From an uncultured Gemmatimonadaceae bacterium (lineage in GTDB: Bacteria; Gemmatimonadota; Gemmatimonadetes; Gemmatimonadales; Gemmatimonadaceae), in assembly GCA_963829055.1 (NCBI GenBank), contig CAWHHI010000011.1, forward strand, positions 320,001 through 384,000: a stretch of 64,000 nt of DNA, given 5' to 3'. This document shows, piece after piece, positions 149 to 64,000 of this stretch. Both the position numbers and the translations under genes were made by a program. The notes beneath the pieces were generated by a model that did no database searches, was not told the DNA's origin, and worked only from the letters and a program-made list of their open reading frames with translations. The stretch's first letter is position 1. Every line of letters starts with the position of its first letter.

Positions 149-796
149 CTAGCCTCGCCCGGAGGACTTGAGGTGGGCTGCCGCCGCCTCCGTCCGATTG
201 CTCACTTTCAGCTTCATGTAGATGTTCTGCAGATGAAACTTCACCGTGTTCTCACTCACGCGAAGTTTCGTCGCGATCACGGCGTTCGTCGCGCCCTCGG
301 CCACGAGGTCGAGCACCGCGCGCTCGCGCGTCGTTAGGTCCGCGCCCGGCGGCCCAGGATTCCGCCCCAGCAGCCATCGCTTCGCGGCACTCGGGAACAC
401 CAGCTGTCCATGGTACACCTGACGGATCGACTCGATCGTCTGCCGCGGCGGCTCCGTCTTGAGCGCGTAGCCATCCGCGCCTCCCTCGAGCGCTGCGCGC
501 ATCATCGCGCCATCGCTGTACCCCGTCAGCACCAGCACGCGCACCGGAATTCCCTCGGCGCGAATGCGCGCGAGACATGCCAGCCCTCCGGTCGTGCCCA
601 TGTCGAGATCCATCGCGACCACGTGCGGATGGTGGCGTCGGATCTCCGTCAGCAACTGTTCACCGTTCGTCGCGGTGGCGACGACCAGGAAATCCGGCTC
701 CGCCTGCAGCAGCGCGCGCAGCCCCTCCAGCACGAGCGCGTGATCGTCCGCCAGCGCGATCCGAATTCGAGCGTCCCGTCGCTCCGCTTCGATCAC
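149..796 (-). CDS. NarL/LuxR-family response regulator (REC + LuxR HTH)
   Basis: REC motifs LADDH, MDLDM and LKT; LuxR HTH LTTRERAVLDLVAEGATNAVIA..VSENTVKFHLQNIYMKL. Confidence 0.93.
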   Translation of the reverse strand: MIEAERRDARIRIALADDHALVLEGLRALLQAEPDFLVVATATNGEQLLTEIRRHHPHVVAMDLDMGTTGGLACLARIRAEGIPVRVLVLTGYSDGAMMRAALEGGADGYALKTEPPRQTIESIRQVYHGQLVFPSAAKRWLLGRNPGPPGADLTTRERAVLDLVAEGATNAVIATKLRVSENTVKFHLQNIYMKLKVSNRTEAAAAHLKSSGRG

Positions 797-1473
797 CCCG
801 CCGGTACCTCTGCCACGACCACCGTACCCCCGCCGAGTGTGCTCTCGATACGGAGTCGACCGCCGACCATAGCAATGCGGTCGTGCATGCCGCGCAAGCC
901 GAACCGATCACCGCTCGGCTCGCGGGAAGGGTCGAATCCCGACCCGTCATCACGGACCTCGAGGCGCAGCCAGTTCTCATCATCTCGCGTGATGGCGAAG
1001 AGCTGAATCACCACGCTGCGCGCACCACCATGCCGGTACGCGTTCGAGAGCGCCTCCTGCAGCACACGATAGACAGCGATCTTCGAGGCCACGCCGATCG
1101 TCGGCACCGGTTCGGCGAACGCGACCGAGACTTCGGTGTCCGTCACCGCTTCGTGCTGCAGCACCAGGCCCTCGACGAGCGGGCGCAGGTCGCGCGTCTC
1201 GAACCCGGGGGCCCGCAGCGTCCCGAGCGACGAGCGGATCTCGTCGAGCGCAGACTCGAGCAGTCGCCGCGCGCGCGTCAGGCGGTCGAGCGCACGCTCG
1301 CGCGCCTCGCCGACCTCGAGGACGTGACCGAGCAGGTCCAGCTGCAACAGCGCGGCGTAGACGTACTGCACAGGCCCGTCATGGATGTCGAGCAGAATGC
1401 GCTGCTGCTCGCGCTCGGCAAGCTGCAGGATGCGGCGCGGTGCGTCGTCGCGCATCGGGTCCGCACTGGTCAC
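793..1473 (-). CDS. Histidine kinase of HisKA_3/DegS-NarX type with no sensor or TM domain
   Basis: H-box RILLDIHDGPVQ, N-box YRVLQEALSNAYRH, G-boxes DDGSGF and FGLRGM; the stop overlaps the RR start. The start is probably GTG 1473 or ATG 1455; the ORF-track extension to 1680 overlaps the upstream gene. Confidence 0.85.
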   Translation of the reverse strand: MTSADPMRDDAPRRILQLAEREQQRILLDIHDGPVQYVYAALLQLDLLGHVLEVGEARERALDRLTRARRLLESALDEIRSSLGTLRAPGFETRDLRPLVEGLVLQHEAVTDTEVSVAFAEPVPTIGVASKIAVYRVLQEALSNAYRHGGARSVVIQLFAITRDDENWLRLEVRDDGSGFDPSREPSGDRFGLRGMHDRIAMVGGRLRIESTLGGGTVVVAEVPAG

Positions 1474-1486
1474 CGGGCCACGATGC

Positions 1487-1753
1487 CTAACGGTGCCAGC
1501 GCTGGGCGAGGAGCCAGAGATGGAGCACGAGCGCAGCCAGCAACGGCACCGCCAACAGGACGATCGATGCGCCTGCCATCGCCCATCGCACCGCCACGAG
1601 TAAGGCGATGCCCGCTCCCAGAAAGGCCGCAAGCTCGCGCAGCGCGACGCCACGCCCGGTAGCGGCGCGGAGCGCGGCAAGGATCGCCGCCTCCGCTACC
1701 GTCGCACCGAGCACCCAGTCGATGAGCCACAGACCCTGGCCTCCGTCCACCAC
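1487..1753 (-). CDS. Small membrane protein (88 aa, about 3 TM), resembling a hypothetical found in proteobacterial photosynthesis clusters
   Basis: Hydrophobic ORF with upstream GAGGT RBS; motifs TGRGV and C-terminal HLWLLAQRW; the family resemblance is from memory. Confidence 0.7.
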   Translation of the reverse strand: MVDGGQGLWLIDWVLGATVAEAAILAALRAATGRGVALRELAAFLGAGIALLVAVRWAMAGASIVLLAVPLLAALVLHLWLLAQRWHR

Positions 1754-1841
1754 GACGTCACCTCGACTGGAGGTAGAGCTGCCAGCCCGCGGGCGTTCGC
1801 AACACTTCCCATCCCCTCACACGCACACGGACTGGCATCGA

Positions 1842-3041
1842 TCACCGAGGCGGGCGACGCCCGCTACTATCCACCGTTCGAGCCGTAGAGTCGGCGGCCG
1901 GCGCGGGAGCCAGCGGAGTCACGGTGACCGGGCTCGGCGTCCCGGGTACCGTCGTACCTAACGCCTGCGCAATCCCCGGCCTCGGCGCCGGTCGGGACAG
2001 CGGCACCAGCGGTGCAGCGCGCGGCGATCGATCCGTGGGAATCGAGTCGGCGGCACGCAGGTCGATCTGGCCCGCGTGCGTCGTGTCGCTCGGCAGCAGC
2101 GCTTCCCATGGGCCCGCATGGCCCCACAATGCGGGGTAATCCTTCACCATCGCGGCGCCATAGAGCGGTTTGTAGACGCCCTGGTGGCACGTGAGACACT
2201 GGAGCTTCGGCGGGTCGCCTAACGGGCCCCGGCGGGCGACGGGGAACGTCGTCCCCAGTGGCGTCAGGTAGGTCGAGTTCAGCTCGCGCACCATGCGCAG
2301 TCCGTACAACGCCGTCACGCGGGCCGGCGGTGCGTTCTGCCACGTCTCCCACGAACGACTGTTGTGGCAGAACGTGCAGTTCACGCCAAGCGAGCGCGAC
2401 ATGCCGATCATGAGCCCGTACGTGTTCTCGGCCTGCTTGATCGACGACCGGTTCGCCGCGGTTGGCGTCACCGTGTACGACTGCACGCGGACATTGGAGC
2501 GATCCAGGTACGCACGCAGGTACTGGTTCTCGTCCGTGTAGTGCCAGATGCCGACCGGCACTGGTGCACCGCGGTGACACGTGTAGCACGTGACACCGGT
2601 CTGCCCGACGTGCGCGCGCCAGTTCGTGTTGACGTTCCGCGTCATCTGCAGCATGCGCCGCGCGACGACCTTCGTGTACAGTGAGTCGGACGCGAAGTTG
2701 GTGAGCACGTGGCAGTACGCGCAGTTGCCGGCATTACCCCCGACCCACTGCGACATTGCAGTCATGGTCCGCGTGAACTCGGCCGCGCTGACGTCGGTGA
2801 GCACCTGCACGTTTTGCCACTGGGCAGGCACGGACGGGCCGGCCGGCGGCAGAGGCGCAGGCGCGCGGTTGAGGGCGACCGTTTTCCGGAGCTCGGAGTT
2901 GTCGTAGTTCGCTTCCTCGCCAACGCCACGGTAGCCGACCTGCACGGTTGTCTTGCCGCCGCCCTCGCAGGCGATGGCCCCGATCACGAGCAGACTGACG
3001 GCGACGAGCTGCCACCAGCGATTGCTCCGCGCTGGCGTCAT
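1842..3041 (-). CDS. pufC: Photosynthetic reaction-centre tetraheme cytochrome c subunit (lipoprotein) with a ~94-aa C-terminal tail
   Basis: Four CxxCH motifs (CAYCH, CYTCH, CTFCH, CLTCH); [21 protein letters not shown]; lipobox AIAC; ATGA overlap with the pufM stop. Confidence 0.96.
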
Positions 3042-4271
3042 GGTCGCCTCCGCGTGGTGTCGCGCCGATTCGCCGAGTCCGGCCTGGTCGCGGCACCGCC
3101 GGGTAGCGTGACCGCGGGATTTGCCTGGCTCGCCGGCGGCAGGGCCGCGGGTGTTGTGTTAGGCACGCCGGGGACGATGCCGCGTGGCTCGTCACGGGCG
3201 GGCGTCGGGAATGGCGTTCCCGGAGCAGACTGGCTCGGTGTCGGGGCCGTCAGCCTGAGCCCGGTGCCGGGGAATGTGTCCGGCGGTGCGCCCTGGTAGA
3301 CGCCTCGGAGATCCTCGACCTTCTGCGGCGTGACGATGAAATGCGCGGGATACTCCGGCGCGATGCCGTGCTTCACACCCCACAGATACCAGTTGTCGAC
3401 GGCTGTGCCGGTGAGCAGAATGCCGATACCACCAGTGAACGTGGTGAGAAACGCGAACCACCACGCCCACCGGTGAATGGACTCCATGGTGGCGTTCCAC
3501 CCCATTGTCCAGCGCCAGAACAGCATCGACCGCTCGGTCGCTGTGCCGCGATCCGTGATCTGCTCGATCTCACGCTCCGCGCCCAGGCGGCTCGCCGCGA
3601 GGATCGTCGCGCCGTGCATCGCGAACAGCAGCGTCGATCCATAGAGGAACGCGATCGACAGCATGTGGAACGGATTGTAGAACAGGTTCCCGTAGCGAAT
3701 CGAGAACGCGGCCGTCCAGTCGAGGTGCGGGAAGATGCCGAACGGCACCGCCTCGCCCCAGCTGCCCATGAGCAGCGGACGGATGAAGCCTAACGATAGG
3801 TAGAGGAAGATCGCCGACGCGAACGCCCACGGCGAGATGCAGTCCCAGCCCAAGCGATCGTGCACGGCGGTAGATGCGCACCCACCAGAGCAGGATCGAC
3901 GCGGTGAGGAAGAAGCCGGCCATGAGCCACCATCCGCCCTGATTGAGCGGCGGGATGTGCAGGCCGTACCCCGGCGGCGGCGGCTCGAGCGCGAGCCACG
4001 GCAGGCGGCGAATGAACTCGATGGGGCTCCACCCCACGGACGCCCACATGTTGAGCCCGATGATCTCGATCGCGATGAATCCGCAGATGAGCGACGCGAT
4101 GCCCGTCCGCCCGAGATAGATCGGTCCCACCTGCGCGTCACCGATCTTCCCCAGCCAGTAGCTGAAGCTCGGCGACCACTGCCGGATCCACGATGACTGG
4201 TCGATCGGCACACCCCAGTCGGGCGCCGTTCGGACCTGCACTTTCGTGAACAGATTCTGGTATTCCGCCAT
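3038..4271 (-). CDS. pufM: Reaction-centre M subunit, ~410 aa, with one +1 indel near 3832 (probable sequencing error) and a ~100-aa C-terminal extension
   Basis: [24 protein letters not shown] in one frame continues as [57 protein letters not shown] in the next. Confidence 0.96.
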
Positions 4272-5155: not shown

Positions 5156-5226
5156 CGGTCCGTTCGCTCGGGGTGAGGGCCGGCGGCCCCATGAGCGGCG
5201 CCACCGTTCCCCCTCCCGACGTTGCC

Positions 5227-5415
5227 CTAACGACTACCCGGCGGAAGCGGCGACATGTCCGCCGCCGCCGTGCCGGAGCGGCGCCCGGCGTCGAGCCAGT
5301 TGAACCGGTCGGTGCTGAGCAGGATGAAGTGGATCACGAGCGCGAGCACGAACAGGAACGTGAACAACGCGATCAGCGTCCGCCGCGGATCGAAGAGCAT
5401 CCAGATGCGATACAT
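5227..5415 (-). CDS. pufA: LH1 alpha polypeptide
   Basis: [29 protein letters not shown] with the BChl-ligating His; C-terminal MSPLPPG. Confidence 0.96.
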
Positions 5416-5751: not shown

Positions 5752-6633
5752 ATGACCGAACAGCGACTGGCCTGGACCGAATGGCGCGACCGCTGGCCTA
5801 ACGCGGCCCACAGTCGGTTCGTCGAGGCCGGCGGCGTCCGCTGGCATGTCCAGGTCGCCGGGGCCGGACCACCAGCCCTGCTGCTGCACGGCGCCGGTGG
5901 CGCCACGCATTCGTGGGCCGACCTGCTGCCTCGGCTCGCGACGCGGTTTACCGTCATCGCACCGGATCTGCCTGGCCACGCCTTCAGCAGCGCGCCGTCT
6001 GATCCGTCGCGGCTGTCGCTCGGCGGCATGGCCGGGGACGTTGCCGCGCTGCTCGCCATGCTCGGCCTGTCGCCACGTGTCCTGATCGGCCACTCGGCCG
6101 GCGCCGCGATCTTGCTCCGCATCGTCGCGGATGGCACCGTCGCGCCCGACATCATCGTCGGTTTCAACGCCGCCCTTGCGGCACCGACCGCCGCGGCCGA
6201 CGCAGCCCTGTTGCCGGCCGTGCGCTTCATCGCGCGAACGGCAGGTGTGGCACGCGTCATCAGCACGATCGCACGGTTCGACGGCGTCGCCGATTCACTG
6301 TTGCAGTCGACGGGCACGTCACTCCCGGCCGAGCAGAGATTACGGTACAGGGCGCTCGCACAGTCGCCCGCCCACGTCCAGGCCGTGTTCACGATGTTCG
6401 CGAACTGGGACGTCAGCGCACTCACGCGCGCGATCGCATCCATCACCACGCCTACGACGTTCGCCAGCGCGCCTAACGATCCGTGGGTCCCACCCAGGCA
6501 GACCGAGCGCGTGGCCGCGACCATGCCGGCAGCGCGGTGTGTCGCGTTGCCGCCAGCCGGCCATCTGGCACACGAAGTGGAGCCCGCCGCGGCCATGGAT
6601 GTCGTCCTCGGCGCGATCGACCGACCTACGTAG
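5752..6633 (+). CDS. bchO: Alpha/beta-hydrolase BchO (Mg-chelatase accessory family)
   Basis: WPNAAHSRFVEAGGVRWHVQ, LLLHGAGGATHSW, GHSAG, GHLAHE; located inside the photosynthesis cluster. Confidence 0.85.
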   Translation: MTEQRLAWTEWRDRWPNAAHSRFVEAGGVRWHVQVAGAGPPALLLHGAGGATHSWADLLPRLATRFTVIAPDLPGHAFSSAPSDPSRLSLGGMAGDVAALLAMLGLSPRVLIGHSAGAAILLRIVADGTVAPDIIVGFNAALAAPTAAADAALLPAVRFIARTAGVARVISTIARFDGVADSLLQSTGTSLPAEQRLRYRALAQSPAHVQAVFTMFANWDVSALTRAIASITTPTTFASAPNDPWVPPRQTERVAATMPAARCVALPPAGHLAHEVEPAAAMDVVLGAIDRPT

Positions 6634-6654: not shown

Positions 6655-8106
6655 TCAGGCATGCGCGCCTGCCAGCGCGCCGCGCGCGCGTTCGACGTAC
6701 GACGTGGTCACGAGCTCGGCGCCTTCGCGCCGGGCGTCGCGCTCTGCCTTGTCTCGCAGCCGCTTGGCCGCCGAGATCCGAGCCACGAACGGCTCCGCCG
6801 CGACGAGCTCATCGAGCCGGTTCTGTGCTGCGTCGTCCCAGGGGAGCGAGGCACCCTTCGCCGGCGTCGGATCGATCTTGTCCAGGTCGGTGCCTAACGG
6901 GATGATGTTGAACAGGACATCGAACAGCGCGTTGCAGATCTCCTGGACGACGTACGTCGCGCCAGCGTAGCCCATGAACGGCGTGCCCGTATGCCGTCGA
7001 ATGGCCGCGCCCGGGAACGACGCCGGGATGTAAATCGACCGGCCACCGGCCTCGGCCAGATACATCCGCTCGTTGTAGCTGCCGAACACCACCATCGCCG
7101 GCTTCTCGCGCAGCATCGTGCGCACTGCCGCGTTGTCCGGCTTCACGCCGGCGCGACGCGACACCGAGAACGTACAGGGCAAGCCGAGCTCGTCCTCGAG
7201 GAAGTGACGGAGCCCGCGCGCATACGTCTCACCCGCAACGACGGCGAAGCTGGCCGTCGGGAAGAAGTCCTGCGTGACACTGCGCCAGAGATCCCACAAC
7301 GGCTTCACCGTCGTGTGCTTCTCGCGCTCGATGAATGGCTCGGGGTCGACCCCCACCAGCGAGCCTAACGTGCGCAGGAACTCGGTGGTCGAGAACAACC
7401 CGATGGGCGCCTGGAGATACGGCACCTCCAACCCTTCGCAGAGCTGGCGGCCGAACTCTCGATACATGCAGACGTTCACGTCGGCGTCCACGAGCCGCGG
7501 GATATCGGCGAGATGGCTGCCGAGCGGGAACACCATGTTGATCTCGCAGCCCACCCCCTCCACGAGCCGCCGTACCTCCGCCACATTGCTCGGCATGTTG
7601 AACGTGCCGTAGATGGGCCCGATGATGTTCACGCGCGGCTTCGAGCCCGGTGCGCGCTCCTTCGGCTTCGGGCGCACGCCTTTCTTGAGGCCGTACTCCG
7701 TCCACAGCCAGAACATTGCGCGGTTCGCGGCCTGCCACTGATCCTCGTCGATCGTGCGCGGGAGGAACCGCACGAGGTTCGATCCCTCGGGTGTCACGCC
7801 ACCACCAATCATCTCGGCGATGCTGCCCGTGACGACAACCGCCGGCTCGTCGGGATCGAGCGTCGCACCCGCACGCCGCATCGCCTTCTCGGTTCCGTCC
7901 ATCGCGAGGTTGTCCTCGGACAAACCGGTCACGACGATCGGCAACTCGTGAGGCGGCAAGCCGTCAGTGTAGTGGAGCACCGCCGTCACCGGCAGGTTCT
8001 CGCACCCGACAGGGCCATCGATCACGACCTGAAGTCCCTTGAGCGCCGTGAACACGTACACGGCGCCCCAGTAGCCTCCGGCCCGATCGTGGTCGAGCAC
8101 TAGCAT
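6655..8106 (-). CDS. bchZ: Chlorophyllide a reductase subunit Z
   Basis: [46 protein letters not shown]-terminal PCP_red-like [10 protein letters not shown]. Confidence 0.97.
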
Positions 8107-8125: not shown

Positions 8126-9673
8126 TCATATCATCTGCTCGGCTTTGACCTTCTTCCGTTGCGCATCCATGTGACGCCGGAACCGCTCCTTCACTTCGGG
8201 CCGCTCCTTTGGCGCTTCCGCAAAGCCGTATCCCGCGGCGACGCCCGTTCCGACGCCGGCGAAGAACTCGCGCATGCGAGCCATCCGATCGCGGCCCGCC
8301 ACGGCGCCGTTCACCGTTGCGGCCAGCGAGCCGGCGCCCGCGGGACCGAACAGCGGTCGCGCCGATACGACGTTCGTGAAGTACACGGAGGGAATCGCGC
8401 GCTCCTTCGCCGCCTGCACGACCGGCGTCGTGCCGATCGCCAGATCGGGCGCGTACTCGCCTAACGCCGCGAGATCCTGTTCGAGCGACGCCCGGAATTG
8501 CACCTGCACGCCGCGCGCTGCGAGCCACTCGCGGTCGACGTCACTCCACGGCGTTCGCGGGCAGGCCGTTCCGACGTAGCGCACGTCCGCCCCGGCCTCG
8601 ATCAGCAGCCGCGCCACGATCAGCTCACTGCCCTCGTAGCCGGACAGGGTGATGCGCGCCGTGATCGGATTCTTCGCGAGCGTCGCGGCGATGGCCGGCA
8701 GCACCCGCGCTTTCGCCGCATCGATGCGATCGTCGGCGACGCCGGCCGCACGACCCACCGCCTCGAGCCAGCCAGCTGTGCCCTCGACGCCGACGGGCGC
8801 TGAGCCGACGACAGTACGCCCGGCTGCGTGCAGCTCTCGCACCGACGCGGTGTAGAACGGATGCACGGCAGCCGCCACCTCGCAGTCCAGCGCCGCGTAC
8901 AGGTCACGCCATTCGCGCGTCGGGACACTCGGGCCCGCGGCCAGGCCCATTGGCTCGAGCATCATTCCGAGCCCCACGGGGTCCGCGGGAAAGAGCTCAC
9001 CGAGGAACGTCACCGTCGGACGCTCCGACACGCCGCCACGCGGAGCCGCGACCGGCCCCTGCTCCGCTTCGAGCCGCGCGTACCGCAGCATGGCGCCGGA
9101 GAGAACGTCCTTCGCTTCCGCGTGCGTCGGCACACCGAACCCCGGCACATCGATCCCGATGATCCTGACGCCGTTGATCTGCTTCGGGAGGAGCTGCAAC
9201 GGAACACCGGACGCTGTCGGCACGCACAGGTTCGTCACGATGATCGCGTCGTACTGCGCCGGATCGGCGAGTGCGTAAACAGCGTCGCGAATGTCCTCGA
9301 ACAGCTTGCCCGTGACGAGCGTTTCGGAGTTGAACGGGACGTACCCGACCGTGCGTCGCGCGCCGTAGAAGTGTGACGTGAACGTCAGGCCGTACACACA
9401 GCACGCCGAGCCCGAGAGCACCGTCGCCGTTCGCCGCATGCGAAGACCGACGCGCAGCGAGCCGAACGCCGGGCACATGGACTGCGGCTGGTCGTGCGGC
9501 CCCTTCGGGTAGTCGCGCGCGAAGCCGTCCAGCAGCTCGGTCTTGCCCGACGCCATCGCCGCTGCCGTCATTCGCTCGGCCCCGGCGTGACAGCCAGCCA
9601 CGTTAGGCGTCGCCCCCGTGGGCTGCTCGGGCGCGACGTCCATCAGCGGCAGCGGCGTGGCGCTACGCGGCAT
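8126..9673 (-). CDS. bchY: Chlorophyllide a reductase subunit Y
   Basis: [43 protein letters not shown]. Confidence 0.97.
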
Positions 9674-10672: not shown

Positions 10673-11607
10673 GCGCACTGCCTCCAGTCCAGAATCATTT
10701 TCACGCATGCCGAGTCTTCGAATGCAGTCGCGTAGGCGACGTCGGCGGCGCGCGCGTCAACGCGGTGAGTGACGAGTCCGTCCAGGGACAGCGCGCCCGA
10801 GGTGACGAGATCGCGCACCGCTGCCATGTCCGCTGGCTGCCATTCGGCGGCGACGCGCAGACGCGCGCTCCGCATGAAGGCCGGCGGAAACTCGAACGAC
10901 ACGGGCGCTGCGTAGAACGCCGCGAGCACGAGCTCGCCGCGCGGCGCGAGGCGCGTGATGAGCGTGTCGATGAGCGAGGGGTCACCACTCACGTCACAGA
11001 TGCAGCGGTAGTCCCGACGTGGATCGCTGTCGGCATTGGCGACCGCGTAGCCGCGAGCGTCGAAGTGTCGTGCAGGATTCGATTCCCAGACGAGGGGCGG
11101 CGGTGCACCTAACGCGACGACGACGCGGGCAATCAGGCGGCCAAGTGCGCCGTGTCCGACGACGAGCTCGGGTGGTGTTGCTCCGTCGATGATCGCGTGA
11201 TACGCCGTGGCCGCGAGCGCGAAGAGTGCCGCTGTCTCACCGAGGGTCTCGGGCACCGCGATTGTTCGCGCTCCCGGTACGATCAACCGCGACGCCGTTC
11301 CACCGAAGAGGCAGCGCGCGTCCGTGAAGCACCGCGCGCCTGGCACGAACACCATGTCGCCCGCTTCACGCCCCGACTCGGCTCCAGCCTCGCTGATGCG
11401 CCCGACGGACTCGTAGCCGGGAACGAGCGGGTAGCCCATTCCGGGGAACGCGGGCATCGCGCCGGTCCAGAGTAGCCGTTCGGTCCCGGTGCTCACGCCA
11501 CTCCACTGCACGTCCACTACGACGTCGGCCGGGGTTGGCCGCGTCAGTGCGAGAGGTCGCACCGCGAGTGCACGAGGACGGTCGAAGACGACCGCGGTGG
11601 AGTTCAC
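10669..11607 (-). CDS. bchC: 3-hydroxyethyl bacteriochlorophyllide a dehydrogenase
   Basis: SGVSTGTERLLWTG, FPGMGYPLVPGYESVG, CVKMILDWR; directly upstream of bchX. Confidence 0.96.
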   Translation of the reverse strand: MNSTAVVFDRPRALAVRPLALTRPTPADVVVDVQWSGVSTGTERLLWTGAMPAFPGMGYPLVPGYESVGRISEAGAESGREAGDMVFVPGARCFTDARCLFGGTASRLIVPGARTIAVPETLGETAALFALAATAYHAIIDGATPPELVVGHGALGRLIARVVVALGAPPPLVWESNPARHFDARGYAVANADSDPRRDYRCICDVSGDPSLIDTLITRLAPRGELVLAAFYAAPVSFEFPPAFMRSARLRVAAEWQPADMAAVRDLVTSGALSLDGLVTHRVDARAADVAYATAFEDSACVKMILDWRQCA

Positions 11608-18991: not shown

Positions 18992-19009
18992 CGCGGCGTT
19001 AGGCCTGGG

Positions 19010-23071: not shown

Positions 23072-23084
23072 GCCGAATCGCGGA

Positions 23085-47726: not shown

Positions 47727-47792
47727 ACTCGACCTAACGAGTGCAGTCGCGTGGAGTGATGTCGACCCGCCGGGGCGACCATGGACGCGTCA

Positions 47793-53484: not shown

Positions 53485-54198
53485 CTACCAGCTTCCGCGT
53501 TCGCCGGCAGCCGCAACCACCGTTGCCAGTCGCTCGGCCGCGTTTCGCCAGTTCGTTTCCACCGCTGCCTGCGCGCCCGGCGCGTTGCCGCCACGAATCG
53601 TCTTGACGATCGCGCGGTGCTCAGCGACGGAACGGTGGAGCTCGGCCGTCGAGCATGCTCACGTACAGACGCTCGTAGCGCTCCGCCTGCGGCTTCACCG
53701 TCGCGTGAAGCGCGAGCACGCGCGGACCGGCAGCCTTCATGTAGCCGCGATGGAATCGCTCGTCGAGCTCGAAGATGCGAGCGTGATCGGGGCGCGCCGC
53801 GGCGGCCGCCGCGCGCGAACGCGTCGTTGATCTCGGTCAGCTGCGGCCGCGACCGCCGAACGCTCGGGCGCGGGAGCCTAACGCGGCCTGCGAAACGCGG
53901 CCAGTCCCTCCAGGGCACCGACGAGCAGGAACAGCTCGCGCGCGTCCTCGCTCGTGAGCGGTGCCACCGTGGGCCGCGTCTGCTGGAGCGTCGGCGAGTC
54001 GACGACGTACCCTTCCTGCTGCAGTCGCTGCAGCGCACCGCGCACCGGCGTGCGACTCACGCCCGAGCCGTGTCGGCGACCTCCGTCTCGACGATGCGCG
54101 TGCCCGGGCGCGAGCCGGCCGTCGATGATCAGCGCGCGCAACCGCTCGTACACTTCCTGCGGTCGGGCGCGCTTGCGCGGGGTGGCCGGTGTGCTCAT
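53485..54198 (-). CDS. GntR/FadR-family regulator (FCD domain), indels
   Basis: VYERLRALIIDGRLAPG, GVSRTPVRGALQRLQQEG, LVGALEGLAA. Confidence 0.85.
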
Positions 54199-55121: not shown

Positions 55122-56248
55122 TCACTCTCAGCAAGATCCGACTGCGCGAGATTCGTCTCCCGCTTCAAGGAGCCGTTTCGCATCTCGTCCGGCGTCATCT
55201 CCGATCGTCGCATCCTGCTGCTCGAGCTGACCGACGTGAACGGCGTCACGGCGTGGAGCGAGTGCGTCGCCGGCGAGTCGCCGAACTACACGCCCGAGAC
55301 GATCGACACGGCGTGGATCGCGATCACGAAGTGGGTCGCGCCGCGCGTGCTCGGCACGGCGTTCGCAGCAGCCGGGCGACGTCCACGCCGCGCTGGACAA
55401 GGACTTCCGCGGCCACAACATGGCGAAGGCCGGCGTCGAGATGGGCATCTGGGGGCTCGCCGCCGACGGCGGCGGGACTGCCGCTCTGCCGGATGCATCG
55501 GCGGCACCCGCACGTCCATCGCCACCGGCATCTCGCTCGGCATCGAGAAGTCCCCGGCAGCGCTCGTCGCCAAGGCGCGCGCCGCGGTCGCCGGAGGGCT
55601 ATCGCAAGGTCAAGATCAAGATCATGCCGGGATCCGACGTCGAGTTCGTGCGCGCGGCGCGCGAGGAGCTCGGGCCGTCGGCGCCGCTCATGGCCGACGC
55701 GAACAACGCCTACACGCTCGACGACATCGATCAGCTCGCGGAGCTCGACACGCTCGACCTGATGATGATCGAGCAGCCGCTCGCCTGGGACGACATCGTT
55801 CGCCACGCGCGAGCTGCAGCAGCGCCTCGAGACGCCGGTCTGTCTCGACGAGTCGATCACGTCGCTCGACCGCGCGATCGACATGCACACGTTAGGCAGC
55901 GGCCGCATCATCAACATCAAGCCGGGCCGCGTCGGCGGCTTCGGACCGTCCATCGCCATTCACGACTTCTGCGAGCAGCACGGGATTCCGGTCTGGTGCG
56001 GCGGCATGTTCGAGAGCGGCGTCGGCCGCGCGTACAATGTCGCGCTCGCGTCGCTCCCCAACTTCACCAAGCCTGGCGACGTGTCGCCGAGCGCGCGCTA
56101 CTGGGAGCGCGACATCGTGACGCCGGAGTGGACGATGGACGCGCGGGAATGGTCAAGGTGCCGCTCGATCGCCCCGGGATCGGCGTCGACCGTCGACGTC
56201 GATCGCGTGGACAATCTGACGGTACGCAGCGACGTGATCTGGACGTGA
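55118..56248 (+). CDS. menC: NSAR/OSBS enolase-superfamily enzyme (N-succinylamino acid racemase / o-succinylbenzoate synthase), indels
   Basis: [59 protein letters not shown]. Confidence 0.85.
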
Positions 56249-56295: not shown

Positions 56296-57471
56296 GATGC
56301 CGACGTCACAGCGTCCTCGTCGAGCTGCGGCGCGATCTTCATCGAGCACCCGAGCTGTCGTGGAAGGAGCAGCGGACCGCGGCCCGGCTCGCCGAAGTCG
56401 TCACCGCGCTCGGCGCGGTCGAGCGTTCACGCGCGTCGCCGGCACGGGCGTCGTCGCGCGGTTCGCCGGCCGCGACCGCTCGCGCGCCGATCGTCGCCGT
56501 TCGCGGCGACATCGACGCGCTGCCGATCGAGGAGGCGACGGGACTCCCGTTCGCGTCCACGTCGCCCGGCGTCATGCACGCGTGCGGCCACGACATTCAC
56601 AGCACGTGGGCGATCGGCGCCGCGCTGCTGCTCGCGCGCAATCCGGCCGCCGGCGACGTGCTCGTCGTGCTGCAGCCGGCCGAGGAAGTTGGGCGAAGGC
56701 GCGAAGGCCATTCTCGACACCGGCGCGCTCGACGACGTGAAGGCCATCTTCGGCGGACACGTCGATCGTCGGTTCGCGGTCGGACAGGTCGTCGCGGACG
56801 CGGGACCGCTCGCCGCATCCGCCGACACGTTCGAGATCGAGCTGATCGGCAAAGGAGCACACGGTGCGCGGCCGCACGAATCCGCCGATCCCATCGTCGG
56901 CGCGGCGGCGCTCATCTCGGCGCTGCAGACCATCGTCGCTCGACGCATCGATCCGGCCGCCGCGGCCGTCGTGACGGTTGGCTCCATTCATTCGGGGACG
57001 GCGTCCGAACATCATCCCCGAGCGCGCCGTGCTCACCGGCACGCTCCGCGCGACCACTCCGGAAACGCGAGCGGCGATCGGCAACGAAGTGCGACGCATC
57101 GCCGAGTCCGTGGCGGAGGCGTATCGTCTCACGGCGCGCGCCACGGTGCACCTCGGCACGCCACCCATCGTGAACCCGCCTCGCGCGTCGCAGTGGGCGC
57201 GTCAGGCAGCGGCGGCGGTGCTCGGCGACGCCGCGGTCGTGCCGTTCGGCCTCACGAACATGGGCGGCGAGGACTTCGCGTTCTACCTCGAGCGCATCCC
57301 GGGGTGCTTCATGCGCGATCGGCGCGCGCGAGGAAGGCGGCGAGCGTACTCGCCGCGCACTCGCCGCGGTTCACCGCGGCGGAGGAGAGCATCTTCGTGG
57401 GCGCCGCCGTGCTCGCGGAATCGGCGCGCGTCGCGTCAGCGACGCTGCAGGCGGAGCGCGGCGGCGCCTAA
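56296..57471 (+). CDS. M20D amidohydrolase, putative L-desuccinylase, indels
   Basis: RGDIDALPI, MHACGHD, QPAEE, GAHGARPH, GGEDFAFY, HSPRF. Confidence 0.85.
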   Translation, partial: DADVTASSSSCGAIFIEHPSCRGRSSGPRPGSPKSSPRSARSSVHARRRHGRRRAVRRPRPLARRSSPFAATSTRCRSRRRRDSRSRPRRPASCTRAATTFTARGRSAPRCCSRAIRPPATCSSCCSRPRKLGEGAKAILDTGALDDVKAIFGGHVDRRFAVGQVVADAGPLAASADTFEIELIGKGAHGARPHESADPIVGAAALISALQTIVARRIDPAAAAVVTVGSIHSGTASEHHPRARRAHRHAPRDHSGNASGDRQRSATHRRVRGGGVSSHGARHGAPRHATHREPASRVAVGASGSGGGARRRRGRAVRPHEHGRRGLRVLPRAHPGVLHARSARARKAASVLAAHSPRFTAAEESIFVGAAVLAESARVASATLQAERGGA

Positions 57472-57499
57472 CGCGCCGGCCGCCAGCGCGCGGCGTCTC

Positions 57500-60260
57500 G
57501 CCGCACGGCGTCGAGCAGCGCCTGCGGAAGGACCAGGTTCACCGGCTTCCCGCCACCTGTTCCGGTAACCTCGACGGAATACGCGCCTGTCTTCGCGAAG
57601 TCGTCCAGGCGGAATACGCAGCAGGCGCTCGTCACGGACCGGGCGCTTCTTGTCCTGGTAGTCCTTCGGATTCACCACGCCGACGAACCGCGCCGAGTCG
57701 AGCGCGATGATCTGCTGGCCGTCACGAACCAGCTCGCGCCGAGCGGATGTCGCTCTTGTCCGACTTGGAGTCGCTGAGCTCAGGGAACCGCTTGTACCGA
57801 AGTTCCGGGAACACCATCGGGCACGACGCTCAGCACGATGACCGGACGCCGCTCGCTGATGGTCGGCCGGAAGCCCGACCACGCCTGGATCGGATCCATC
57901 AGCTCGTACGGATACTTGTTGAGCTGGAACGGCGAATCCCAGTAGGCCTTCGTGCGAGCGATCGTCGAGTCCCGCCAGGCGATGACAGGCGGCGTCATCG
58001 ACCAGCACGCGATAGCCCTGTCCACCGGCACGGTACGGCGCGAGGTCGAACGTGTCCTTGCGGCTCGCCTCACGAAGGGCGTCGGCCGGATACGCGGGCG
58101 ACGGCCACGCCGGAAGCAGCGTCGCGCTCGGCGCCGTGAATCCGTCACGGCCGACGCGCGTCTTCGCGGCACGAACCGCGGCGTCGATGGCCGACGCCAT
58201 CGCGAACGTCGATTGCCCGCCCTTCTGCGTGGCGAGCGCGATCGACCGACGATCGCCGCCGAGACGATCGGACGACCCGCGTCGGCACGCGTGACGCTGA
58301 GCGCCGGCCGCGCCTTGCCATCGTCGCCTGCCTTGGCGGTGCCTCGGCGCGACAGCGGACCGGCGAGCACCGAGCCTAACGCGAGCGACCGAGTCGCCAC
58401 TCTTGACCGCCGATTCACCGCCGACGGCGAGCACGCGGTAGCCCGACCACGGCTGCAGGGCGACGGCGAGCACCGCCACTCCCGCGGTCCGCGATCAGCC
58501 GATGCGACGCGACCACGAAGGCGAGTCGATGCCGTCGATCTGCACGTCGACGAGGCTGTCCCTCGGCACGAGCGACGTCGACGTGACGATGAACCCCGCG
58601 CCGCTCGCCGTGTCAGCGAGGAAGCCAGTGCCGCGCCCCTCCGATGACAACACGCCGACGACGCCGTTCCGCATGCGCGTGACGGCGGAGTCGAGGGCCA
58701 ACCCACCGGTCGGAGTGGCAGGTGCAGCGGCAGGGGTCGAATCCGATGACCGGCGCGGCCACGGGCACAGGCGCCGCAACGGCAGTGTCGGTCTTCGGCC
58801 GGGCGCTGTCCACGGCAACTGGCGGGGCGATCGCGACCGGTTCGGCCGTCGTCGGCTTCGAATCTCCTGGTCTGAGGACGAACGCCGCTCCAGCAATGGC
58901 GACGACCGCGCCGCCAATGACCAGTGGAAGGCGGCTCTTCGACTTGCGCTTCGTGGTCGCGACGGGCATCGCGAGCGTCGACTCGTCGCTGTACGCGCCA
59001 CCCGACCCGGTGGCGGCGCCCACGGCGCCCGTCGGCGTATCCGTCGCGCTCGTGAAACGCGCGCCGGCACCCGACAGAACGGGGATGGACTCGGGAGGGC
59101 TGCTCGCCCGACGGCGAGACCGCGACGGCGGAACCCTCCTCGGACCACTCGACATCAGCAGCGGTCGCGTCGGATGGCGTATTCGTGCCGCCGCCGATCG
59201 TGACATCCATGGTCGGCACGCCACGCGCGGGCGTGAAGACGCGCGGCGGAGTCAATCGCCGCGAGGCGATGGCGCTGAGGTAGTGCTCCTCGGTCGTCGT
59301 GACCGGAAGCTCGGCCACCGCTTCGGTGAAGTCGCGCGCGAAATCCAGCACGTCCGCGTAGCGCTGTGCCGGATCGGCGGCAAGTGCCTTGTCGAACACC
59401 GCCTGCAGCGAAGCGGGCCACGCGACGTCCGCCTTCACCAGCGACAGGCGACGCGGCGGCTGCGTGAGACGAGCGAGCAGGTGGTCGGTCGTCGTCCCGG
59501 AACCGAACGCGTGGGTTCCGGTGAGCACGTGGTAGCCGACGAGCGCGAGCGAGTAGATGTCGGTCCGCGCGTCGAGCACGTCGCCGGCAAACTGCTCGGG
59601 GCTCATGTACTCGGGCGTTCCGACCGCGATCCCGGTGGACGTGAGCTGCTGCGATTCCTTGGACATCACGCGCGCGATGCCGAAGTCCACGATCTTCACG
59701 TGGTCGGTGCCGGCGCGCGACTTCGCGATCATGATGTTGTCCGGCTTCAGATCGCGGTGCAGGATGCCGAGGCCGTGCGCGGCGCTGAGCGCGTCCGCGG
59801 TCTGGGAGATGATGTCCGCCGCGCGAACCGGGATGAGCGAGCTTTCCTGCTCGAGGGTCCGCGACAGTGACTCGCCGTCGATGAACTCCATCGCGAGGTA
59901 GATCAGCCCATTGGCGGTCTCGCCGAAGTCGTAGACGGCGCAGACGTTCGGGTGCGAGATCTGGCTCGCGTTCTCCGCTTCGCGGTTGAATCGGACGACC
60001 GCGACCGGGTCGCTCATGAGCTGCGGGCGCATGACTTTGACGGCGCACCGCCGCTTCATGCGGACGTGTTCCGCCAGGAAGACCTGACCCATGCCGCCGT
60101 CGCCAAGCTTCGAGACGACCCGATACCGGTCCGCGATGATCGACCCGACGAGATCCGTCGAGTTCTGCGCCTGAATCAGGGCGGCGCCATCGAGGAAGCA
60201 GAACATGTGGTCTGCCTCGTAGCGCGTGCCGCACTGCGGACAGACTTTTTCGCTCGGCAC
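57500..60260 (-). CDS. Hanks-type Ser/Thr kinase with N-terminal Zn-ribbon, TM and a degenerate trypsin-like extracellular region; 3' end uncertain
   Basis: CPQC..CFLDG, LGDGGMG, AVKV, HRDLKPDN, DFGIAR, GTPEYMSPE; TM LVIGGAVVAIAGAAFVL and GTGFL in other frames. Confidence 0.85.
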
Positions 60261-60554: not shown

Positions 60555-62297
60555 ATGCCCCCTCGATCGCGCGCGGCGCTCTACATCGCGATCCTTGCAC
60601 TGGCGGTTGCCGCGTCGGCGACGAGCGTCGCGAACGGCTTCGCGCTCGACGATGTCCCGTTGGTGGCCGACAATGCGACCATCCATACGCTGCACGGGTG
60701 GTGGGGGCTGTTCACAAGGCCGTACTGGCCACCGCAATACGGGGCGTCGCTTTACCGGCCGTTCGTGATGCTGGGTTTCGCCGTGCAGTGGGCCGTCGGC
60801 AACGGATCGCCATTTGTTTTTCATCTGACGAGCATCGCGCTGTACGCGCTGGCGAGCGCGCTCGTCCTGGCGCTCTTTCTCCTTCTTCTGCCGCCGGCGC
60901 CAGCACTGATCGCCGCCGCACTGTTCGCCGTGCACCCGGTTCACGTAGAGGCGGTGGCGAATGTCGTTGGACAGACCGAGCTCGTGGCCGCGGTCGCTGC
61001 GCTCGGAGCGGCAATACTCTACGTGCGCCGCCGCCGGTCCGGCACGCTCGGTCCTCGTTCCGTCGTGCTCATCGCGATGCTGTTTGCGATCGCCTGCCTC
61101 TCGAAGGAGAGCGGGGTTCTTCTGCCCGCCGTCCTCGTGGCGTTGGAATTGTTCGCGGTGGCGCAGGACGGAGACAGCTGGCGTGACCGCCTGCGACGGC
61201 GCGTGGGGGCCCTCGCACCGCTCTTCATCACGCTCGCGCGTGGTCGGCGCGAGCTACCTCGTCGCCCGCACCCTGGTTGACGGTGACGTCCTTGGCGAAA
61301 AGGACGTCGTGCCGCTTCACGGGTTCGAGCCGGCTGTGGATGATGCTCGCGGTCGCGCCGCACTGGGTCCGGCTGCTGGCCTGGCCGGCCCACCTCTCCG
61401 CCGACTACAGCCCACAGGAGATCCCCGTCCCGTCTGGCGTCGGCGCCGAGATCATCCTGGGGGCGCTCGTCATCGGCACGGCGTCGCCTGGTGTTTCTGG
61501 CGTTAGGCAGGACCGACGAGGCGCAACGCGACGAGCGGTCCGTCGCGCGACTCGGATTCGCGTGGGCTGCGATCGGCATCCTGCCTGTCAGCAACCTGTT
61601 CTCGGTCATGGTCCTTGGCGAGCGCACGCTGCTTACGCCGAGCATCGGCGCGATGCTGCTGGTCGGCGCCGCGACATCGGCACTCTGGCGTCGCTCGCGC
61701 GGACAGCCTCACGGTGCGCTGATGCGTGGCGGACTCATGACGGTTGCGGCATCGCTTGTCGTGGTGGGGGCGATCAGGAGCCGCGATCGACAGCGCGTGT
61801 GGCATACCAGCGCGACGCTCGTCGCGCAGACGATCGTGGACGCCCCGCGGAGCTATCGAGCGCAGTTCTTCTACGGTCAACTGATGTTCGACCAAGGCAA
61901 GCGCGCCGAGGGGGAGCGTCATCTGCGTCTCGCGATCGCGCTCAACCCGACGCCCGCCGATGTCTCGCCGCTCAACTACCTCGCGACGGAGTACCGAGAC
62001 GCGGGGATGTGCCCGCAGGCGTTGCCGCTGTACGAGCGCGCGCTCGCGAACGACGCCGAGCGGCCGGACGTTCGCTACGGGCTCGCGGCGTGTCTGCTCG
62101 CTGTCGGTCGCGTCGACGACGCACGACGGCTCGCCCGTGACGGGGTACGGCGCGGCGACCTCAAGGCGCTGTTCCTCGACCTGATCGCGCGAAGCGACAG
62201 CGTCCCTCCGCACGCCCCAGCCCTCGCAGTAGCGGCCGGTCCCCAGCTGGCACTCACGGCGTCCACCGCGCCGTTGACAAAGCGGCTGCGCGAGTGA
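60555..62297 (+). CDS. TMTC/DUF1736-like GT-C membrane glycosyltransferase with C-terminal TPRs, frameshifts near 61240 and 61490
   Basis: FALDD, LYRP, HPVHVEAVANVVGQTEL, SKE, LSADYS, GERTLL; TPR tail. Confidence 0.78.
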
Positions 62298-62316
62298 ACT
62301 CTACCTATGTAGAGTT
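62297..62316. promoter_or_regulatory. Palindromic operator upstream of PadR, probably autoregulatory
   Basis: AACTCTAC-CTAT-GTAGAGTT perfect 8-bp inverted repeat; TTGACA at 62274-62279. Confidence 0.7.
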
Positions 62317-62340
62317 TTACATAGCCACCTCGGAGCCTAC

Positions 62341-62670
62341 GTGCCACGCGCGCCTCGCCTCACGCTTCCCACCGCCATGGTGCTGATGGCGGTCTCTCGA
62401 AATTATCGCTACGGGTTCGACATCTCCGACGCGACAGGATTGCCGAGCGGCACCGTGTATCCGGTGCTCCGCCGGCTCGAGGAGGCGGGTCTGCTGCGCT
62501 CGCGTTGGGAGGCGGTGGAGTCCGCGCGCGCCGAACAGCGTCCGCCGCGGCGCTACTACACGGTCACCGCGTCAGGCGGTCAAGCCGTTCGCGACGCGAT
62601 CGATCGATATCCGACGCTCGAGCGCGCGCTCGACCGTCCAGCGTCGTCACCCGAGCCGCGTCCGGCGTGA
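62341..62670 (+). CDS. PadR-family transcriptional regulator
   Basis: YGFDISDATGLPSGTVYPVLRRLEEAG..WE..RPPRRYY. Confidence 0.9.
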   Translation: MPRAPRLTLPTAMVLMAVSRNYRYGFDISDATGLPSGTVYPVLRRLEEAGLLRSRWEAVESARAEQRPPRRYYTVTASGGQAVRDAIDRYPTLERALDRPASSPEPRPA

Positions 62671-64000
62671 AGTCTCTCGTCGATGGATCAGGGGCAGCCG
62701 CCAGGCGCGGGCATTGTCGCGGCGTGCGCGCGACTCGTCCCACCGGATCGACGCGCCGACTGGCAGGCGGAATGGCTCGGCGAGCTGTCGTACGCGTGGA
62801 GCGTGCGGCTGCAAGCGGGCGACGTCTCACCGACCGCGCGCGCGTCGCTCGTGCATGCGGGCGCTGGGTGCGGTCTCCGATGCGATCTGGTTTCGACGCC
62901 ACTATGGAGGCGACTCGATGTTCTCTCAGGATCTGCGCTATGCGTTGCGCACGTTGTATCGGTGGCCGGGGTTCACGGCAGTGGTGGTGCTGACGCTGGC
63001 GTTAGGCATCGGCGCCAACGCCGCCATCTTCAGTGTCGTCAACGCGGTGTTGCTGCGTCCCCTGCCCTACAGCGCGCCCGACCGGCTCGTATTCGTGCTC
63101 GGAACGCCCACGGATGGCGATTCGGCGAAGGTCGGAGCGTCCAGCTCATACCCCGATTACGTGGACATCCGTGACCGTGCGCGATCGTTCAGCCAGCTGG
63201 CGGCGACGTCGGTGCGGCAGACGACCGTTACGGGGAAGTCGTTCGAGCCGGCGATCGTATCCGGCGCGCCGGTGACGGCGAACCTGTTCCCGATGCTCGG
63301 TGTCGCCCCAGCGCTGGGGCGCTCGTTTCTGACGGAGGAAGACAAGCCGGGCGCGCCAGGCGTCGTCATCGTGAGCGACGGATTCTGGCGGCAACGACTG
63401 AACGCCAACCCTAACGTGATCGGCTCGGCGTTGTCGGTGAACGGCACACCGGCGACCATTGTCGGGGTCATGCCGCCGCGGTTCGACTTCCCCGGCGCTG
63501 CCGCGCTGTGGTATCCCGCCGCCGCACCTAACGATCCGCAATACACGCGGACAGCACTCGTTCACGATCGTCGGACGGCTGGCGGCCGGCGCGACGATCG
63601 CGAGCGCGACTCGCGAGGTCGCGGGGATCGCGCGGCAGCTCGAGACGGAGTATCCCGGACTGAACGCGAAGCGTGGCGCCCGCGTGCAGGGGATGACCGA
63701 GGCGATCGTCGGTGATGTGCGGCCGGCGCTGCTGGTGCTGCTGGGGTCCGTCGGACTCGTGCTTGCTGATCGTGTGCGTGAACGTCGCGAATCTGTTCCT
63801 CGCTCGGGCCACCGCGCGCACCCGTGAGGTGGCGGTGCGCACCGCGCTCGGCGCGGGACGAGGTCGGCTCGCTCGCCAGTTCCTCACCGAGAGCTGTGGT
63901 GGTCACGGCAATCGGCAGCACGCTGGGACTGGCGGTGGCGTACTGGGGGAGCAAGCTGCTGGTCTCCAAGGCGCCGCGCTCGATTCCGCGCGCCAGCGAG
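62667..64000 (+). CDS. ADOP/MacB-type duplicated ABC permease, indels, truncated at the window end
   Basis: [58 protein letters not shown]; follows PadR. Confidence 0.9.

Follow-up and report, generated by a model that had tools for sequence, protein, structure and literature searches.

A 64-kb stretch of a draft genome from an uncultured Gemmatimonadaceae bacterium of soil (genome G000, contig C11, positions 320001-384000, called the window below) repeats one seven-letter word, CCTAACG or its complement CGTTAGG, through genes and spacers alike. What keeps so short a word at such density? The initial annotation of the window listed at least 54 copies and proposed a genome-wide motif under selection or molecular drive, of the kind of the DNA uptake sequences (DUS), the uptake signal sequences (USS) or the cyanobacterial highly iterated palindrome HIP1. 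We followed the word through the whole draft genome (7.78 Mb, 20 contigs, 66.7% G+C, 86% complete) and through 401 genomes sampled from the phylum. The effect is genuine and very strong, and the word appears to match uptake sequences in nearly every sequence-level respect tested. By analogy, we tentatively favour the view that (G)CCTAACG is a self tag similar to DUS and USS, which would owe its abundance to a fixation bias arising from biased DNA uptake. No published description of the word was found in a literature search; the one paper matched by its letters, a review of chemokine expression in ovarian cancer, has no bearing on it.

Abundance, layout and strength of the word

Genome-wide, the heptamer occurs 6,391 times (3,154 CCTAACG and 3,237 CGTTAGG), i.e. 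once per 1.2 kb, and the octamer (G)CCTAACG, GCCTAACG, 5,004 times. The heptamer ranks first among 7-mers under Markov models of orders 1, 2 and 3, which predict 123-364 copies per strand, and exceeds expectation 9-26 times. When the Markov model was trained with the word masked, 30-125 octamers were expected, which corresponds to a 40-160-fold excess. Shuffling synonymous codons within the 6,804 provisional gene calls (10 runs) left 317-374 copies, with a mean of 343, against 4,158 observed in coding sequence, a 12-fold difference. The excess of the 7- and 8-mer thus stands under both codon-aware and Markov nulls, with a ratio of observed to expected that is not near 1, and the proposal of a genome-wide motif under selection or drive holds. 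A maximal-order Markov ranking did not flag the word, because the word's own sub-words absorb the signal, and was dropped in favour of the lower orders and the masked model; 71% of the CTAA tetramers of the genome fall within the word.

In the window, every coordinate of the initial annotation was matched and the count is exactly 54 (32 on the plus and 22 on the minus strand), whereas 100 dinucleotide-preserving shuffles of the window gave 2.71 copies on average and 6 at most. Most copies had been said to extend further, and 42 of the 54 are indeed GCCTAACG. The stop codons of seven genes are supplied by copies, those at 5226, 14037, 23066, 30082, 44239, 47733 and 53877. Among the stops reported before, those of the light-harvesting complex (LHC) antenna, BchI-like and DUF983 genes were recovered, while those of an '88-aa' and an 'M20' gene could not be matched up. 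The codon readings described for individual genes were largely found again: GTT-AGG in the BchI-like and phytochrome genes, TTA-GGC in the TonB-receptor (susC-like) gene and CCT-AAC in several genes. TTA-GGC had also been assigned to pufM, but the copy in the Photo_RC open reading frame (ORF) 3573-4301 is read GTT-AGG. The copies are listed below with their strand, as the heptamer alone (7-mer) or as the octamer (8-mer).

332..338, minus: 7-mer; GAC-CTA-ACG (D-L-T) in response-regulator ORF 152-907(-)
1486..1492, plus: 8-mer; ACC-GTT-AGG (T-V-R) in histidine-kinase ORF 796-1695(-)
1957..1963, plus: 7-mer; GCG-TTA-GGT (A-L-G) in reaction-centre cytochrome c ORF 1845-3158(-)
2218..2224, plus: 8-mer; CCG-TTA-GGC (P-L-G) in the reaction-centre cytochrome c ORF
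3789..3795, plus: 8-mer; ATC-GTT-AGG (I-V-R) in Photo_RC ORF 3573-4301(-)
5226..5232, plus: 7-mer; TAG stop (5227-5229, minus strand) of LHC antenna gene 5230-5415(-)
5797..5803, plus: 8-mer; GCG-TTA-GGC in ORF 5667-6707(-)
6472..6478, plus: 8-mer; TCG-TTA-GGC in ORF 5667-6707(-)
6893..6899, plus: 8-mer; CCG-TTA-GGC in Oxidored_nitro/PCP_red ORF 6658-8130(-)
7364..7370, plus: 8-mer; ACG-TTA-GGC in ORF 6658-8130(-)
8460..8466, plus: 8-mer; GCG-TTA-GGC in Oxidored_nitro ORF 8129-9718(-)
9601..9607, minus: 8-mer; CCT-AAC-GTG (P-N-V) in ORF 8129-9718(-)
11108..11114, plus: 7-mer; GCG-TTA-GGT in ORF 10672-11643(-)
13666..13672, minus: 8-mer; ATC-GTT-AGG in Mg-chelatase (BchI-like) ORF 12440-14038(+)
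14037..14043, plus: 8-mer; TAA stop (14039-14041) of the BchI-like ORF, and CCT-AAC-GCT in the overlapping VWA (BchD-like) ORF 13863-15863(+)
14892..14898, plus: 8-mer; CCT-AAC-GAG in the BchD-like ORF
17632..17638, minus: 8-mer; CTC-GTT-AGG in bacteriophytochrome ORF 16724-18988(+)
18997..19003, minus: 8-mer; between convergent ORFs, no ORF called
19818..19824, plus: 8-mer; TCG-TTA-GGC in aminotransferase ORF 19013-20443(-)
21322..21328, minus: 8-mer; GCC-GTT-AGG in ORF 20939-21463(+)
21510..21516, plus: 8-mer; CCT-AAC-GCC in ORF 21438-22445(+)
23066..23072, minus: 8-mer; TAG stop (23069-23071) of DUF983 ORF 22547-23068(+)
23356..23362, plus: 8-mer; GCG-TTA-GGC in penicillin-amidase ORF 23088-25547(-)
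27969..27975, minus: 8-mer; ACG-TTA-GGC in TonB-dependent receptor ORF 26297-28354(+)
29642..29648, plus: 7-mer; GAC-CTA-ACG in ORF 28671-30083(+)
30082..30088, plus: 8-mer; TAA stop (30084-30086) of ORF 28671-30083(+)
31153..31159, plus: 8-mer; edge of ORF 30353-31153(-), no frame assigned
32220..32226, plus: 8-mer; CCG-TTA-GGC in ORF 32048-32608(-)
32607..32613, minus: 8-mer; ORF edge, no frame assigned
33624..33630, plus: 8-mer; ORF edge, no frame assigned
34029..34035, minus: 7-mer; GTC-GTT-AGG in ORF 33829-34056(+)
34827..34833, minus: 7-mer; no ORF called
36199..36205, plus: 8-mer; CGC-CTA-ACG in AsmA-like ORF 35180-37810(+)
37372..37378, plus: 7-mer; ACC-CTA-ACG in ORF 35180-37810(+)
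37609..37615, minus: 8-mer; GGC-GTT-AGG in ORF 35180-37810(+)
37832..37838, minus: 8-mer; between ORFs
39200..39206, minus: 8-mer; GGC-CTA-ACG in ORF 38912-39883(-)
39559..39565, minus: 8-mer; CCT-AAC-GCC in ORF 38912-39883(-)
43017..43023, minus: 8-mer; CCT-AAC-GTG in ORF 42907-43092(-)
43324..43330, minus: 7-mer; GCG-TTA-GGG in ORF 43122-43535(+)
44239..44245, minus: 8-mer; TAA stop (44241-44243, minus strand) of ORF 44244-44702(-)
47733..47739, plus: 7-mer; TAG stop (47734-47736, minus strand) of ORF 47737-48144(-)
48457..48463, plus: 8-mer; GGC-GTT-AGG in TPR ORF 48229-49758(-)
48902..48908, plus: 8-mer; ACG-TTA-GGC in TPR ORF 48229-49758(-)
51447..51453, minus: 8-mer; CTC-GTT-AGG in ORF 51172-51621(+)
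53233..53239, plus: 8-mer; CCT-AAC-GAT in PALP ORF 52537-53289(+)
53877..53883, plus: 8-mer; TAG stop (53878-53880, minus strand) of GntR-like ORF 53881-54198(-)
55890..55896, minus: 8-mer; ACG-TTA-GGC in ORF 55769-56245(+)
57467..57473, plus: 8-mer; CCT-AAC-GCG in ORF 56975-57565(+)
58375..58381, plus: 8-mer; GCG-TTA-GGC in protein-kinase ORF 57783-60305(-)
61501..61507, minus: 8-mer; GCG-TTA-GGC in TPR ORF 61344-62294(+)
63000..63006, minus: 8-mer; GCG-TTA-GGC in MacB-like ORF 62387-63712(+)
63410..63416, plus: 7-mer; CCT-AAC-GTG in ORF 62387-63712(+)
63527..63533, plus: 7-mer; CCT-AAC-GAT in ORF 62387-63712(+)

The word is spread evenly over the genome. ORFs have 0.72 copies per kb and the remaining sequence 0.78, and the density is similar over all 20 contigs (0.64-1.09 per kb). 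Called genes carry CCTAACG 2,011 times and CGTTAGG 2,142 times on the sense strand. Four reading frames hold nearly all of these copies: CCT-AAC-G (Pro-Asn, 1,202), C-CTA-ACG (Leu-Thr, 790), CG-TTA-GG (Leu-Gly, 1,607) and C-GTT-AGG (Val-Arg, 528). The two frames that contain a stop are nearly empty (19 and 7 copies), and 454 further copies straddle gene ends. Of the 847 TAA stops, 281 lie inside the word, as do 222 of the 1,746 TAG stops (13%). The gene calls cover 75-79% of the genome. The secretin (C8:360651-361147), D12 methylase (C8:134909-135647) and Photo_RC (window 3573-4301) genes match their families in two or three frames or only partly, and frameshift errors are probably numerous in the assembly.

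The word is not palindromic, and as the initial annotation had suspected, it shows no strand polarity. Polarity was tested genome-wide through GC skew, the origin and terminus not being mapped in the draft: orientation and skew correlate at r = -0.16 over 117 windows of 50 kb, with 914 plus and 993 minus copies where the skew is positive and 1,353 plus and 1,376 minus copies where it is negative. Adjacent copies share their orientation in 51.7% of cases, and orientation is independent of gene strand. Spacing is more even than Poisson: gaps below 200 bp number 408 against 977 expected from an exponential distribution, gaps of 400-1,600 bp are in excess, and all four orientation pairs follow this pattern. 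In a second word-rich genome, 14 short gaps were seen against 16.4 expected, a comparison that says little at the word density found there. The base before the word (-1) is G in 78% and A in 13% of copies, and G is disfavoured at +7. Codon periodicity aside, the flanks past positions -2 to +9 carry at most 0.05 bit of information. A longer repeat, a mobile element, a repetitive extragenic palindrome or a miniature inverted-repeat transposable element (MITE) was rejected as the carrier of the word on the basis of these uninformative flanks. As a separate observation, the genome does hold a dispersed MITE-like repeat of about 350 bp with terminal inverted repeats of about 26 bp (ATCGCGCCGGGGCCGGTGGGAACTAC...), for example at C4:804940-805292 and in at least 27 further near-full copies; the 28 near-full copies contain only 2 copies of the word.

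The pressure on codon choice was estimated from the peptide contexts that can accommodate the word. It is present at 1,216 of 1,995 P-N-[AVDEG] sites (61%) and at 1,613 of 5,895 [TAPS]-L-G sites (27%), as well as at 8% of x-L-T and 4% of x-V-R sites. Compared with codon usage outside the word, the odds are boosted 26-fold for P-N, 103-fold for L-G, 17-fold for L-T and 33-fold for V-R. A boost of broadly similar size in every frame argues for a pressure that acts at the DNA level. Genome-wide, 57% of TTA codons are located in the word. The encoded peptides are affected as well: the tripeptide P-N-[AVDEG] occurs at 1.96 times expectation, against 1.19 for the reversed order, and [SPTA]-L-G at 1.21 times, against 0.96.

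One-letter variants of the core stay mostly near expectation (about 0.4-3 times over three Markov orders), and the precursor GCCCAACG is mildly depleted (0.61-0.70 of expectation). Strong enrichment is confined to the edge variants ACCTAACG (827 copies), CCCTAACG and GCCTAACA (435 copies) and to GCATAACG (583 copies); GCCTGACG is about 2-fold over. This pattern would fit a mutation-selection balance in which only the exact word is favoured.

Contigs assembled from four public runs (four studies, library type not on record) were compared with the first 20 kb of the window. They show 283 differences, and the 40 that were listed all lie outside the word. For instance, the 5 differences in a 910-base contig that covers 1284-2193 spare the copies at 1486 and 1957, and the contigs over 19149-19987 show no difference. 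Since the listed differences miss the word, it does not appear to be an artefact of the present assembly. Contigs from 14 studies contain this species.

The same part of the window contains a photosynthesis cluster (1845-16683) in which the word has the normal density of the genome. Its genes encode the reaction-centre cytochrome, two Photo_RC proteins, the LHC antenna, NifH-like and nitrogenase-like reductase subunits and BchI- and BchD-like proteins. When window positions 1-20000 were searched at the DNA level against four genomes of the same genus and one of another genus, a single gene matched, at 69-72% identity, and the cluster was not found in these five genomes at the sensitivity of that search.

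Turnover, relatives and foreign DNA

Some 64 kb of sequence occurs in two versions that are 80-99% identical, mostly located at contig ends (for example C15:48133-54768 and C2:706-7344, or C11:42440-47069 and C8:435101-439730). Because of these contig-end duplicates, the bin seems to mix two related strains in places. We compared 57.7 kb of duplicates at 80-98.5% identity, mostly such strain overlaps. Both copies carry the word at 38 of 57 places (67%) and one copy only at the other 19, while control 7-mers are identical in 57.8% of cases, which predicts about 41% 'both'. Where the two copies differ, a single step separates them, as in CCGAACG (CCG-AAC) against CCTAACG (CCT-AAC).

Over larger distances the positions are hardly shared. 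In 400 kb of G300, a word-rich genome of another genus (140 orthologues, 135.8 kb aligned, 70% amino-acid identity), 72 sites carry the word in the present genome only, 46 in G300 only and 7 in both. Against the word-poor family member G008 (62 orthologues), 55 copies are found in the present genome only and none is shared. Fifteen of about 21 L-G copies lie on conserved Leu-Gly pairs for which G008 uses CTG or CTC; only 5 of about 24 P-N copies face P-N in G008, which mostly has other residues there. These alignments show that copies arise in place by substitution, sometimes with a change of amino acid, and that individual positions are dispensable.

The word is patchily distributed. In the survey, which includes four unpublished genomes (G013, G079, G118 and G199, all word-poor, on which no claim is built), the octamer is abundant in all 7 genomes of the bacterium's own genus (2,501-5,112 copies) and reaches 6,360 copies in 5.1 Mb in genus g9. 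Three of the four g40 genomes (3,479-4,141 copies), g43 (4,469) and g37 (1,100-1,966) are also rich. Intermediate counts, of about 340-1,060 copies, come from several further genera of the family and, beyond it, from one genus and one genome in a second and a third family, respectively; the word is rare in the rest of the sampled genomes, all other classes of the phylum included. Rich genomes tend to be large (4.0-7.8 Mb). The same word tops the ranking in samples of G014, G207 and G115, and no dialects were seen, a fourth further genome having been sampled over 41 kb only. Almost every copy in G300 (184 of 185) has G at -1.

G289, the remaining g40 genome, is word-poor with 66 copies. Within 294 kb sampled from it (L021-L040), there are 2 copies of the word and no other hyper-abundant dispersed word that could replace it. 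In the same sample, words around AGAAAGCAG / CTGCTTTCT occur 35-66 times against 3-13 expected.

In word-poor relatives the few copies stand in same-strand arrays, about 550 bp apart, where each forms the first box of an attC site of about 100 bp, with the form GCCTAACG...TGTTAGGC. The attC sites of these relatives and of the present genome have GCCTAAC(G) as their R'' box and GTTAGGC as their R' box. The word is thus identical to the core site of integron cassettes in its own bacterial order, a match that the initial annotation had overlooked. It also fits the attC consensus, RYYYAAC for the inverse core and GTTRRRY for the core, given in PMC3053210, and integrons have been reported from Gemmatimonadota (PMC8618304). 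Large chromosomal cassette arrays are found in the word-poor genomes G021, G019 and G029 (L001-L006); on a G021 contig, at least 26 cassettes of about 500-650 bp follow one another on the same strand within 24 kb.

Four stretches of 16-50 kb in the present assembly lack the word, three of them at contig ends:

C6:5440-55038: word-free segment
C11:1-44055: word-free segment (outside the window)
C6:591808-623330: word-free segment
C4:804932-820718: word-free segment

They encode housekeeping proteins, including FtsK, DAHP synthase, chorismate synthase, FolD, leucyl aminopeptidase and isocitrate lyase, and each of these genes has a second copy in the genome at just 46-67% identity. At two segment borders, another contig bears a version of the flank that is 92-93% identical. 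Because these families are normally single-copy and are duplicated here at such low identity, the segments look foreign, being either assembly chimeras or large transfers. The joints of the two mappable segments contain no copy of the word. The word can serve in practice as a sharp marker of own versus foreign DNA, which here exposes four segments that would not belong to the lineage.

What could maintain the word

In the scenario that we tentatively favour, the word would arise in place through ordinary point substitutions, and a fixation bias would then keep the exact word as double-stranded DNA, regardless of strand, of frame and of whether it lies in coding sequence. At 17-103-fold in odds, the bias would outweigh codon preference and even alter amino acids; density would matter and position would not. 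Its likeliest source would be sequence-biased uptake followed by homologous recombination, as for the DUS of Neisseriaceae and the USS of Pasteurellaceae, so that alleles carrying the word would pass between cells more often. What was observed directly is how large, uniform and specific the bias is, how the sites turn over, how the proteome is affected and how unevenly the genera carry the word. The genome was also seen to have a basic competence gene set, made up of ComEC, a secretin, a ComEA-type HHH domain and pilin-like genes. Uptake as the process is what we only infer. Among the systems suggested by the initial annotation, DNA uptake is accordingly the closest analogue, if an unproven one, and methylation is weakened, as discussed below.

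Several observations weigh against an uptake sequence. With 7-8 letters the word is shorter than the DUS and USS cores, and no pairing of copies into inverted repeats was seen. ComEC, the secretin, the ComEA-type domain and pilins occur in rich and poor genomes alike; all five genomes searched have pilin-like genes (7-17 matches each), and no rich-specific pilin was found among 46 compared, 5 from the present genome and 41 from four relatives, a set that missed two weak matches in a C12 cluster. That the word equals the integron core site suggests a reader of another kind. A literature search gave no work linking Gemmatimonadota with an uptake sequence. Finally, one-letter variants of the core are not enriched, unlike the mismatched forms of uptake sequences, which are gradually over-represented according to PMC1939737.

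Alternatively, the word could be a self tag for a nuclease, repair or defence system, in which a DNA-scanning enzyme is tamed or redirected, as RecBCD is by Chi, and own DNA is spared. A dense and fairly even word on both strands that is missing from foreign segments would suit such a system, and the boost of the exact word alone is what a specific recognition protein would produce. We nevertheless regard this as doubtful: the word has no GC-skew polarity, unlike Chi and the FtsK-orienting polar sequences (KOPS), its 40-160-fold excess lies far above the enrichment of Chi, and no candidate system was identified. A role directly comparable to Chi or KOPS, the former being among the earlier suggestions, was rejected for the same lack of polarity.

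The identity with attC raises the possibility that an integron integrase, or a protein derived from it, binds the genomic copies, which would be kept for recombination or cassette capture. Chance identity over exactly 8 letters is unlikely, and the present genome has an integrase gene at C20:208041-208958(-), which scores 265.7 bits against a cut-off of 265. Out of 41 GCCTAAC...GTTAGGC pairs spaced 35-140 bp genome-wide, about 7 are attC-like, all on C20, where they lie widely spaced at 119250-205191 on one side of the integrase with the 8-mer in both arms. The genomic copies at large lack the attC architecture of paired boxes, a palindrome of 57-141 bp and arrays next to intI; they have neither an attC-like partner arm nor an attC-like flank. 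Nor does the integrase follow richness: it exceeds the cut-off in 18 of 31 relatives regardless of the word, word-poor G289 has two integrases over the cut-off and one just below, word-rich G397 of the same genus has none over it, and in word-rich G014 the gene lies in three frames. The integrase was rejected as a driver for this reason. A truncated remnant of about 105 codons at C4:2862-3170(-) looks like a decayed gene and was rejected as a stand-alone reader. The two mapped joints of foreign segments without the word also speak against capture at the word. Genomic insertion by integron integrases needs only GWT, as stated in bioRxiv 10.1101/2022.09.11.507474. Taken together, we find this explanation unlikely.

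A combination of both ideas, which we judge quite unlikely, would have the DNA-uptake machinery or another reader tuned to the integron cassette core of the order, the saturation of the genome being a by-product of uptake bias. If this were true, the chromosome and the cassette pool of the community would share one tag, and transformation would feed cassettes preferentially to the integron. A 2025 paper reports that natural transformation drives cassette shuffling in chromosomal integrons (PMC12614218). The identity of the word with the integron core raises a testable link between DNA uptake and cassette capture.

Copies might also be binding sites of a nucleoid-associated or chromosome-organising protein, many weak sites being kept for compaction or segregation. 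The uniform density on 20 contigs, the even spacing and the tendency of rich genomes to be large would agree with this. What makes this role improbable is that individual sites lack conservation between genera, that no regional pattern is seen, that no candidate was identified and that close relatives do without the word.

A methylation-linked motif of the HIP1 type, with a methyltransferase that modifies the word and linked selection or repair that keeps it abundant, is very improbable in our view: the word has a terminal CG and adenines open to modification, but it is not palindromic, a six-frame profile search of the 86%-complete genome for PF01555, PF02384 and PF00145 gave no match (other methylase families were not searched), and no Vsr was found in five genomes. 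The sole D12-class methylase, which lies in two frames, recurs in word-poor genomes, and a search of the rich G014 did not find it; methylases were rejected as readers, no common family being matched and the D12 enzyme not tracking richness. Mutation or repair bias alone, by which a context-specific repair or polymerase error would create the word without function, is highly unlikely as well, since its agreement with copies arising by single substitutions and with the mild depletion of GCCCAACG is opposed by the lack of depletion of most one-letter precursors, the lack of a Vsr, the two changes that L-G copies require (CTG or CTC to TTA) in the frame with the largest boost, and the short-range deficit of neighbouring copies, which such a bias does not predict.

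Comparison with known systems

Chi, KOPS and the architecture imparting sequences (AIMS) are over-represented short asymmetric words, as is the present one, and are read by DNA-processing enzymes. They are skewed with the direction of replication and only modestly enriched, whereas the present word has no polarity and a 40-160-fold excess.

HIP1 (GCGATCGC) is an eight-letter cyanobacterial palindrome that occurs about once per kb in every frame and is patchy among lineages; HIP-type words in cyanobacteria are linked to methyltransferases. The present word resembles HIP1 in its eight letters, in its density of about one per kb through genes in every frame and in its patchiness. It differs in being asymmetric and in that the common methyltransferase families were not found in the genome.

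The letters of the word are identical to the R'' and R' boxes of attC sites, but the approximately 6,400 genomic copies are single boxes in ordinary genes, without partner arm, palindrome or cassette.

The closest resemblance is to DUS and USS, the cores of which have 9-12 letters. To our knowledge, sequence-specific self tags are known in detail from Neisseriaceae and Pasteurellaceae only, in addition to the unexplained HIP1. The present word belongs to another phylum, is a different word of 7-8 letters, and recurs unchanged across several genera and in two further families, without dialects. It has no inverted pairs, no flanking AT tracts and no receptor candidate among the pilins compared, and it lacks the enriched mismatched forms described in PMC1939737, at core positions. 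It shares with DUS and USS a short non-palindromic sequence at a density of about one per kb, found on both strands and within genes as well as between them, its use of poorly conserved residues, its absence from foreign DNA and its restriction to particular lineages. It is likewise written against codon habits and doubles its encoded tripeptides, as uptake sequences roughly do according to PMC2817400. A third case of a self tag would provide an independent system for how such words arise and what reads them, here in a widespread soil phylum, where the word recodes 61% of one tripeptide context and is switched on or off between close relatives.

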